Origin: Escherichia phage NHEP11
Reading direction: 5' to 3' (one strand)
Length of the DNA stretch: 64,000 nt
Sequence record: PQ511149.1
Made by a program: the position numbers and the translations under genes. How positions within the stretch are numbered: position 1 is the first letter of the stretch; the number at the start of each line of letters is the position of its first letter. A model generated the notes under the pieces. The model saw only the letters and a program-made list of their open reading frames with translations, made no database searches and was not told the origin of the DNA. Positions 59,148-60,631 of this stretch are shown here, piece by piece.

Positions 59148-59567
59148 TTATGCGAAAGCAGCCGGGCTATATTTTTTAATTTGGAATTCAGGAACTACCA
59201 TGAACTGACCAGCGAAAACGATGTTATAAAGCTTAACACCATCTTCTACCCAACGGTCGCTAATAAATCCGGCGATTTGCTTAGTTTTCCACGGCGTTCC
59301 ATCAGTTGCCGCAGCAATAGTGAATTCATGGTCTTTTTCAACAGAAACTGATCTGCATAGTCCCCATTTGAACGCTTTTTCTTCTGGCTCAATGAATTGG
59401 CTTGAGACGTAGCCAATGTTGCCATCAGCATCACGAACTTTAACTTGATGTGGACTAAAGAGTCCACAACTTACAGAAAGAACTTCAACCAACTTCCCAG
59501 CAACTTTAGAGCGAGAAGCAACAGATACATATACGTAATCACTTGTAGAGAGATTTGCAATATTCAT
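59148..59567 (-). CDS. hypothetical protein, tandem paralog 1 (C-terminal GFISDRWVEDGVKLYNIVFAGQFMVV motif)
   Basis: 139 aa; shares ASRSK(V/A)AG(K/R)LVEV and C-terminal motif with paralogs 2 and 3. Confidence 0.6.
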   Translation of the reverse strand: MNIANLSTSDYVYVSVASRSKVAGKLVEVLSVSCGLFSPHQVKVRDADGNIGYVSSQFIEPEEKAFKWGLCRSVSVEKDHEFTIAAATDGTPWKTKQIAGFISDRWVEDGVKLYNIVFAGQFMVVPEFQIKKYSPAAFA

Positions 59568-59576
59568 AATAATTCC

Positions 59577-60074
59577 TTAAGCTTTACGAGGAGACACATA
59601 GCGAGTGATTTCAGATTCTTCAACAACTCGGAAGTCACCTAAGAATACAATATTGTATAGCTTTTTACCATCTTCAACCCATTGGTCGCTGATGAAGCCG
59701 CACATAGTATCAGTTGTGCTTGGATAGCCATATTCGTCGATGTAATCAAATTCTTTATCGGTTATAAATTCAACGCCTTTGCAAAGGGCCCATTTGAACT
59801 GTACATTAGGCTCAACGATATCGTTTGAAGCAAAGTGTGCAGGTGCAACTTCTTCGCTTGAAGCAAATTGGACTCGTATATGTTTTTCCAGGAATTTAGG
59901 ACTTACGTAAGCATACTGGGCATCTTGTCCGCCAAAACTGGGCATGATTCGAACTTTAACTTCTTTAACACGTCCCATGCCGTTAGTACGAAGCCCTGCT
60001 ACTTCAACCAGACGACCTGCAGCTTTAGAACGAGAAGCAGGAGATACACGAAGGATTTCACCAATAGTAATCAT
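59577..60074 (-). CDS. hypothetical protein, tandem paralog 2
   Basis: 165 aa from Met 22 of the track ORF (the upstream track codons overlap the promoter); C-terminal GFISDQWVEDGKKLYNIVFLGDFRVV. Confidence 0.6.
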   Translation of the reverse strand: MITIGEILRVSPASRSKAAGRLVEVAGLRTNGMGRVKEVKVRIMPSFGGQDAQYAYVSPKFLEKHIRVQFASSEEVAPAHFASNDIVEPNVQFKWALCKGVEFITDKEFDYIDEYGYPSTTDTMCGFISDQWVEDGKKLYNIVFLGDFRVVEESEITRYVSPRKA

Positions 60075-60104
60075 AATTTCTCTCTCTTTGTTTAAATTGA
60101 ATTC

Positions 60105-60133
60105 ACTATACTCCATCCATCCTTGGATGTACA
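60105..60133 (-). promoter_or_regulatory. early promoter (-35 TGTACA variant, -10 TATAGT), repeated-promoter family
   Basis: core CCAAGGATGGATGGAGTATAG nearly identical to the promoter at approx 60662-60691. Confidence 0.55.
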
Positions 60134-60136
60134 ACA

Positions 60137-60631
60137 TTAATTAAGGATATTAACCACAGCACTACGTGGAACTACACTAAAATCACCGGCATGAACAACG
60201 TTCAGAAGTTCAACCCCATCTTCAATCCACTGATCAGTTACCCATCCATTTACTGGACCAGCGAACGGGCGTCGAATTGAAACATATTTACACAATAAAT
60301 CAGTAGGCTCAATAGGCTTAATCAGAGTACCGTACATACAAGCGATATCCATATCAATACAGATGTCTTTAACTGGTTCTACTTCTTCAATCAACAGTTC
60401 AAAGTCGGTGCTCGGAAGGGCGGTAGTAGAAATTGTACCATATGAATTTTTAATTTCTAAGAATAACCAAGGGCCTTCAGCTTGTTTGATGAAGTTAACA
60501 ATAGTGAAACTATTACCTTGAGTGGCACCTAAAATTTCACAAAACTTTTCATAAGCTCGCACTGAAGCACCGTACCAGTTGATTTGTTTTTCGTCTTTCA
60601 GGATGTAAGTAGCCGTAGTATTGATATTCAT
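60137..60631 (-). CDS. hypothetical protein, tandem paralog 3
   Basis: 164 aa from Met 15 of the track ORF; C-terminal GWVTDQWIEDGVELLNVVHAGDFSVV. Confidence 0.6.
   Translation of the reverse strand: MNINTTATYILKDEKQINWYGASVRAYEKFCEILGATQGNSFTIVNFIKQAEGPWLFLEIKNSYGTISTTALPSTDFELLIEEVEPVKDICIDMDIACMYGTLIKPIEPTDLLCKYVSIRRPFAGPVNGWVTDQWIEDGVELLNVVHAGDFSVVPRSAVVNILN

Follow-up and report, generated by a model that had tools for sequence, protein, structure and literature searches.

T4 MotB, an abundant early protein, is the best-described relative of the genes considered here. Patterson-West et al. (2018; PMC6070864) found that overexpressed MotB is toxic, that the protein attaches to host DNA and to modified T4 DNA with no sequence specificity, that it copurifies with H-NS and StpA, and that it doubles the burst size. 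In later work, T4 MotB was reported to alter the H-NS footprint and to up-regulate H-NS-repressed genes (Patterson-West et al., 2021; PMC7827196). The same paper described a common C-terminal domain, predicted as an OB-fold, in MotB and MotB.1, and suggested a duplication; MotB proper was assigned to Category 1 and the MotB.1 subfamily to Categories 2–4, while the RB69 gene set was given as two motB copies, one motB.1, and one 29-aa peptide. The N-terminal domain of MotB.1 has been described as LSm-like and five-stranded, and T4 motB.1 deletions have no phenotype in laboratory conditions (Kim et al., 2025; PMC12152347).

Gene order and family membership

The DNA analyzed here, called the window below, is a stretch of 64,000 nt from Escherichia phage NHEP11 (PQ511149.1), in which the studied piece occupies positions 59,148–60,631. 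In this piece, the window is 95–97% identical to sequenced Mosigvirus phages (HX01, vB_EcoM_G2469, ST0). We are confident that the locus is a motB.1–motB–second motB cluster in the early non-essential dexA–cef region of a Mosigvirus-type (RB69/HX01-like) T-even phage, apparently shaped by old duplication, domain shuffling, purifying selection, and cross-genus exchange of the motB/second-motB bicistron, with a function predicted from T4 homology.

An earlier note on this DNA had described three adjoining minus-strand ORFs of 139, 165, and 164 aa (after start correction), and all three are indeed present. The same note placed them upstream of dexA; in the direction of transcription, they are all downstream of it, the minus-strand order of early genes being dda, dexA, motB.1 (copy 3), motB (copy 2), second motB (copy 1), motB.2, and cef. 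The features of the locus, in this order, are as follows.

61384–62697, minus strand: dda, first in the transcription order of this run of early genes
60697–61374, minus strand: dexA, exonuclease gene transcribed ahead of the cluster (PF16473, E 4e-20; phrog_255, E 9e-82)
60662–60690, minus strand: predicted early-type promoter of motB.1, TTTACA-17-TATAAT, 11/12 consensus matches, core at 60664–60683
60137–60631, minus strand: copy 3, motB.1 orthologue, 164 aa, start corrected
60105–60133, minus strand: predicted early-type promoter of motB, TGTACA-17-TATAGT, 9/12 consensus matches, core at 60107–60126
59577–60074, minus strand: copy 2, motB orthologue, 165 aa, start corrected to 60074
59568–59576, minus strand: intercistronic spacer ggaattatt, 9 nt, between the stop codon of copy 2 and the ATG of copy 1
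59148–59567, minus strand: copy 1, second motB paralogue, 139 aa
58564–59088, minus strand: motB.2 orthologue, 174 aa, flanking gene (E 2e-16 to T4 MotB.2; phrog_1106)
58279–58506, minus strand: cef

The mechanically compiled ORF list contains longer forms of copy 2 (186 aa) and copy 3 (178 aa). The corrected starts agree with alignments of homologues, which open with MIT or MII in MotB relatives and with MNINTT in relatives of MotB.1. Extended motB starts are carried by many database entries (forms of 186 to 197 aa). In the window, the in-frame extension MLYIQGWMEYSEFNLNKEREIM located 5' of motB (60075–60137) overlaps the motB promoter, and in HX01 the matching 22 codons are annotated as a separate "modifier of transcription" CDS (4039–4107 of the HX01 locus, L001). 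Both the extended motB forms and this short CDS look like annotation artefacts.

All three proteins exceed the curated gathering threshold (25 bits) of the Pfam motB family, PF17613, scoring 127.6 bits for copy 2 (E 5e-37 over residues 1–160), 75 bits for copy 1 (E 8e-21), and 35.1 bits for copy 3, where the match is confined to residues 84–159. Copies 1 and 2 fall into phrog_1671 ("MotB-like transcriptional regulator"; copy 2 with E 1e-62) and copy 3 into phrog_2333 (E 1.9e-82 over residues 1–164). NCBIfam yielded no match for any of the four proteins searched.

As had been proposed, C-terminal similarity is significant in every pair of copies (E 1e-10 to 5e-28). Copies 1 and 2 align over the whole length, with 40% identity in 159 columns (E 5e-28); copy 3 aligns by its C-terminus only, over 29 aa with copy 1 (E 1e-10) and over 36 aa with copy 2 (E 4e-10). 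BLASTP against the T4 proteins aligned copy 2 end to end with MotB (45% identity, E 1e-42), copy 1 also with MotB (37%, E 3e-25), and copy 3 with MotB.1 over residues 3–136 (37%, E 5.6e-27).

The core G(F/W/Y)(I/V)(S/T)DQW(V/I)EDG..L.N.V was found in all three copies. The stricter C-terminal motif given in the earlier note is exact in copies 1 and 2, but copy 3 departs from it in having W instead of F, T instead of S, and H instead of F (GWVTDQWIEDGVELLNVVHAGDFSVV). Similarly, the ASRSK(V/A)AG(K/R)LVEV block, ascribed by the note to all three N-termini, occurs in copies 1 and 2 but not in copy 3, whose N-terminal half is unrelated. Since copy 3 lacks the KOW-like N-terminal domain with the VS..SRSKAAG.LVEV block that is present in copies 1 and 2, it is not MotB proper. 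It combines a MotB.1-type N-terminal domain with a MotB-type C-terminal domain, as is characteristic of the MotB.1 subfamily. T4 MotB itself (NP_049626; PF17613, phrog_1671) has in common with copies 1 and 2 the SRSKAAGKLVEV block, an FKW motif, and the G(F/Y)I(S/T)DQWVEDG.KLYN.VF core.

The position of motB between dexA and cef is that of MotB proper, as in T4, and motB.1 lies directly upstream of motB both in T4 and in the window. The products of the T4 genes dexA.1 and dexA.2, suggested earlier for comparison, resemble none of the three proteins; the T4 counterparts within the locus are motB.1, motB, and motB.2, the last of which encodes a protein unrelated in sequence to the MotB family. 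In T4, dexA.1 and dexA.2 are situated between dda and dexA; they are absent from the window, HX01, APCEc01, and RB69, and the dda–dexA gap in the window is only 9 nt (61375–61383). The arrangement differs from T4 in two further respects. Firstly, T4 has a single motB, whereas the window contains motB and a second, translationally coupled copy that lacks the linker. Secondly, the T4 order is dexA, motB.2, motB.1, motB, cef, whereas in the window motB.2 comes after the second motB.

The agreement with RB69 is much closer, including the same genes, order, 9-nt spacing between motB and the second motB, and promoter pair. Protein identity to RB69 is 98% for RB69p013 (motB.1), 81% for RB69p011 (motB), and 91% for RB69p010 (second motB). 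The gene order of the window, together with "MotB-like" annotations, recurs in RB69, HX01, and APCEc01, and the DexA proteins of these three phages are 100% identical to that of the window.

Compared with T4 MotB.1, copy 3 (164 aa) has a complete C-terminal module and an extra insert of 20 residues (the DMDIACMYGTLIKP region). The reference T4 motB.1 (NC_000866; positions 1722–2151 of the T4 locus, L002, minus strand) encodes 119 aa and is interrupted by a 1-nt insertion (tggattGgaagatgg) in the part that specifies the conserved C-terminal core, after which the module goes on in a different frame. The gene is intact in MT984581 and OZ209023, two later T4 records, and in the form of a 143-aa protein found on 256 contigs. 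The motB.1 deposited for RB69 (3877–4373 of the RB69 locus, L006) likewise consists of a 132-aa and a 29-aa ORF that represent one gene split by single-base insertions, whereas motB.1 of the window is intact; therefore, what was published as the "Category 3 peptide" is the C-terminus of MotB.1, separated from the rest of the protein. Neither the 119-aa "MotB.1" nor the 29-aa "Category 3 peptide" is probably the native protein.

Predicted promoters and transcription units

Candidate promoters were scored against the T4-type early consensus TTTACW-N17-TAYWAT. The motB promoter begins 3 nt past the motB.1 stop codon. The claim that the promoter cores of copies 2 and 3 are near-identical holds: the sequence CCAAGGATGG(A/T)TGGAGTATA is the same in 19 of 20 bases and occurs at exactly two sites in the 64 kb, against 0.01 expected. 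The spacers of the two promoters are identical at 15 of 17 positions, compared with a median of about 6/17 among 105 promoter pairs in the window. DNA similarity between the two promoter regions ends at the promoter edges, i.e., it covers a core of 20–30 nt. The motB.1 promoter sequence is identical in HX01, APCEc01, and RB69, and the core is absent from the T4 locus even with up to three mismatches allowed. Around its -10 element, the T4 motB promoter carries a GGGACC/GGTCCC hairpin that is missing from the motB promoter of the window.

A second pair of promoters with spacers identical at 15/17 positions, AACTCTTGAGAGCAGAG and AACTCTCGGGAGCAGAG, was observed on the minus strand of the window at about 49166 and 20827. 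Each contains a hairpin around the -10 element, and they resemble the motB promoter of T4 and PP01. Hence, recurrent promoter types are not special to the motB cluster.

The earlier note had also given each of the three genes its own early promoter, which is incorrect for copy 1: it is separated from copy 2 by a gap of 9 nt, and two scans found no promoter-like site upstream of it. As the spacer leaves no room for a promoter, we infer that motB and the second motB constitute a bicistronic unit. The last two bases of the copy 2 stop codon, aa, together with the spacer create AAGGA, a predicted ribosome binding site for copy 1. The 9-nt gap is annotated in the same way in five relatives (HX01, RB68, PP01, APCEc01, and RB69). 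A search for the MotA-box pattern of middle promoters found no minus-strand site within 59148–60700.

Repeated T4-type early promoters at gene boundaries of a plastic region are likewise a feature of the PeSL (promoter-early stem-loop) cassettes of T4-like phages (PMC2839356, PMC4122927). The regions of the motB.1 and motB promoters lack a significant stem-loop, their predicted RNA folding being no better than that of shuffled sequences (z 0.09 and -1.1, respectively), whereas the motB.2 promoter has one. The latter gene is preceded by its own promoter and stem-loop at about 59089–59147; the promoter/leader hairpin (59078–59150, minus strand; dG -22.1 kcal/mol, z -4.7) reaches across the -10 element, its end lying in the ribosome binding site. 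This promoter/leader aligns with the promoter of T4 motB.2 even though the place of the gene in the cluster differs; for this reason, motB.2 appears to have moved as a unit with its own promoter and stem-loop.

Domain architecture, origin, and probable exchange of the motB genes

In the AlphaFold2 (AF2) models, two beta domains are connected by a disordered linker. Copy 2 (pLDDT 78) consists of a KOW/SH3-like N-terminal domain (residues 1–64), a variable disordered linker (66–89), and a C-terminal beta domain (100–160). Copy 1 has the same two domains but neither the linker nor one loop of the N-terminal domain, and in the alignment of homologues it keeps every family-invariant residue. In copy 3 (pLDDT 79), a disordered linker (86–106) joins a different N-terminal domain to a MotB-type C-terminal module (encoded at about 60140–60310). 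Disorder is predicted for the MotB inter-domain linker (copy 2 residues 64–92, window positions about 59799–59885), whose length is hypervariable: some homologues carry inserts that reach about 30 residues, e.g., VEEVESHDGYVCESNDIRGVVAQD.

The C-terminal beta-barrel module of about 55–70 residues is common to all three proteins. Since this module has five strands and a short helical turn preceding the last strand in both models, and since it is all that the two modelled proteins have in common, we favor a predicted SH3-like barrel of the Tudor/KOW type over the published OB-fold. Structural likenesses included the PHF19 Tudor domain, the MRG15 chromodomain, PWWP and BAH domains, and the KOW domains of Spt5/NusG, in matches for which the tool does not report aligned residues. 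When the MotB alignment was used as a profile against PDB sequences, no significant match emerged; the top hit was a designed repeat protein (E 0.005).

A search with the profile of the C-terminal module identified 30 clusters among 1.84 billion representative proteins. Three long matches (570, 842, and 2408 aa) are MucBP, Ig, and Calx-beta repeat proteins and were discarded as spurious; all six scanned clusters of the 27 others match PF17613. The MotB family is narrow and phage-restricted. By tblastn, MotB was found in 769 phage records. For the second MotB, orthologues with at least 80% identity were present in 207 of 778 matching phage records, and none fell between 60 and 80%; in these 207 records, from two genera, the reading frame is intact at 80–100% identity. 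MotB.1-type proteins matched 746 phage records.

Copy 3 may owe its origin to modular domain shuffling instead of gene duplication, a mobile MotB.1-type C-terminal module having recombined onto unrelated N-terminal domains; we regard this as somewhat more likely than not. Only 308 of the 746 records with MotB.1-type matches cover at least 80% of copy 3. Proteins of about 145, 180, and 250 aa with dissimilar N-terminal parts end in sequences that are 74–88% identical to the last 55–60 residues of copy 3, which indicates shuffling; among them, proteins of Klebsiella and Enterobacter phages join a MotB-like SRS..AG N-terminus to a MotB.1-type C-terminus. On the other hand, the MotB-type and MotB.1-type C-terminal modules are only about 45–55% identical to each other. 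Shuffling is compatible with the general interpretation of the locus as an old, diverged motB cluster, and refines only the origin of copy 3.

That a single small gene and its promoter were recently triplicated in tandem, under selection for dosage or for fast anti-defence evolution, is very unlikely. The genes are adjoining, lie on the same strand, and have motifs in common, the two promoter cores are nearly the same, and motB and the second motB diverge more than their neighbors among close relatives, all of which would suit such an event. However, the paralogy proposed in the earlier note is real in a narrower sense than "tandem triplication": paralogy along the whole gene is limited to copies 1 and 2, which are only 40% identical, whereas copy 3 shares some 30 residues of the C-terminal module. 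Near-identical repeat units including the flanking DNA were not found, as promoter likeness stops at the promoter edges and copy 1 is without a promoter; the dN/dS values are below 0.35, and no evidence of an anti-defence role was found. Finally, orthologues of each copy can be told apart in hundreds of phage records, including other genera. For this reason, the duplications are judged to be old; the family is old and diverged, rather than a product of recent triplication or dosage amplification.

It is also very unlikely that copy 1 is what remains of a duplicated motB that has lost its function and is decaying, as its short length, the missing linker and N-terminal-domain loop, and the lack of a promoter might suggest, given its intact frame in all 207 phage records from two genera, dN/dS of 0.17–0.21, conserved ribosome binding site and 9-nt coupling to motB, and complete set of family-invariant residues.

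Within Mosigvirus, dda, dexA, and motB.2 are 97–100% identical to the window (dS 0.01–0.16, dN/dS 0–0.08), whereas motB is 79–89% and the second motB 84–93% identical. For the two motB genes taken jointly, dS is 0.07–0.47 and dN/dS is 0.17–0.32; the second motB alone has a dN/dS of 0.17–0.21. Both copies are under purifying selection, looser than in the neighboring genes. The earlier description of the genes as "fast-diversifying" is thus correct insofar as both are far more diverged than dda, dexA, and motB.2; but with dN/dS of this magnitude and dS itself raised, the pattern argues for allele exchange and relaxed constraint, not for demonstrated positive selection. Alleles of motB and the second motB have probably been swapped within Mosigvirus.

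Exchange seems to have extended beyond the genus. RB68 and PP01 from Tequatrovirus both carry the pair, and in comparisons with them dS is 0.5–0.6 for motB and the second motB, while it is saturated in dda, dexA, motB.2, and cef. Because of this difference, the motB/second-motB block looks to have been exchanged between phage genera.

In one Logan metagenome contig, a single hybrid gene replaces the pair between motB.1 and cef (protein P0035; 1373–1894 of locus L007). The N-terminal half of its product is of the MotB type and the C-terminal half of the second-MotB type. Unequal crossover between the paralogues, reducing the tandem pair to one gene, would yield such a hybrid; an assembly artefact is also possible.

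Predicted function and implications

Its promoters suggest that the cluster is transcribed immediately after infection. Host RNA polymerase would start at the two near-identical sigma-70 early promoters, which are consensus matches, before motB.1 and before motB; the second motB would be co-transcribed with motB and translated from the motB transcript across the conserved 9-nt gap. If T4 MotB is a guide, the proteins would be produced minutes into infection, and the MotB-type members may coat DNA non-specifically and shift H-NS and StpA on it. H-NS-silenced genes would then be de-repressed and the burst size increased, favoring phage growth. DNA binding and the effect on H-NS are extrapolated from T4 MotB, with which copy 2 shares 45% and copy 1 37% identity. 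Of the two functions proposed earlier for such arrays, host takeover agrees with the published work on T4 MotB; for anti-defence, as mentioned above, we found nothing in favor.

A bolder model can be formulated, which we consider rather improbable. The C-terminal barrel would be a common module for assembly or host-target recognition, by which MotB.1, MotB, and the second MotB might co-assemble on the nucleoid as a multi-subunit anti-silencing machine; exchangeable heads (KOW-like vs. LSm-like) would set the nucleic-acid specificities, and the bicistron would travel between genera as a functional cassette.

The motB.1/motB/second-motB arrangement is already known, since the paralogy was published in 2021 (PMC7827196) and near-identical genomes have been annotated; it is real but ordinary. 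The present analysis adds little as a discovery, and its practical value lies in three corrections. Firstly, the cluster consists of two paralogues and one domain-sharing relative, rather than of a triplicated gene. Secondly, the reference motB.1 annotations of T4 and RB69 are truncated by single-base insertions. Thirdly, roughly a quarter of the phage records with MotB also contain the second motB, a conserved partner of motB in what gene spacing predicts to be a bicistronic unit.
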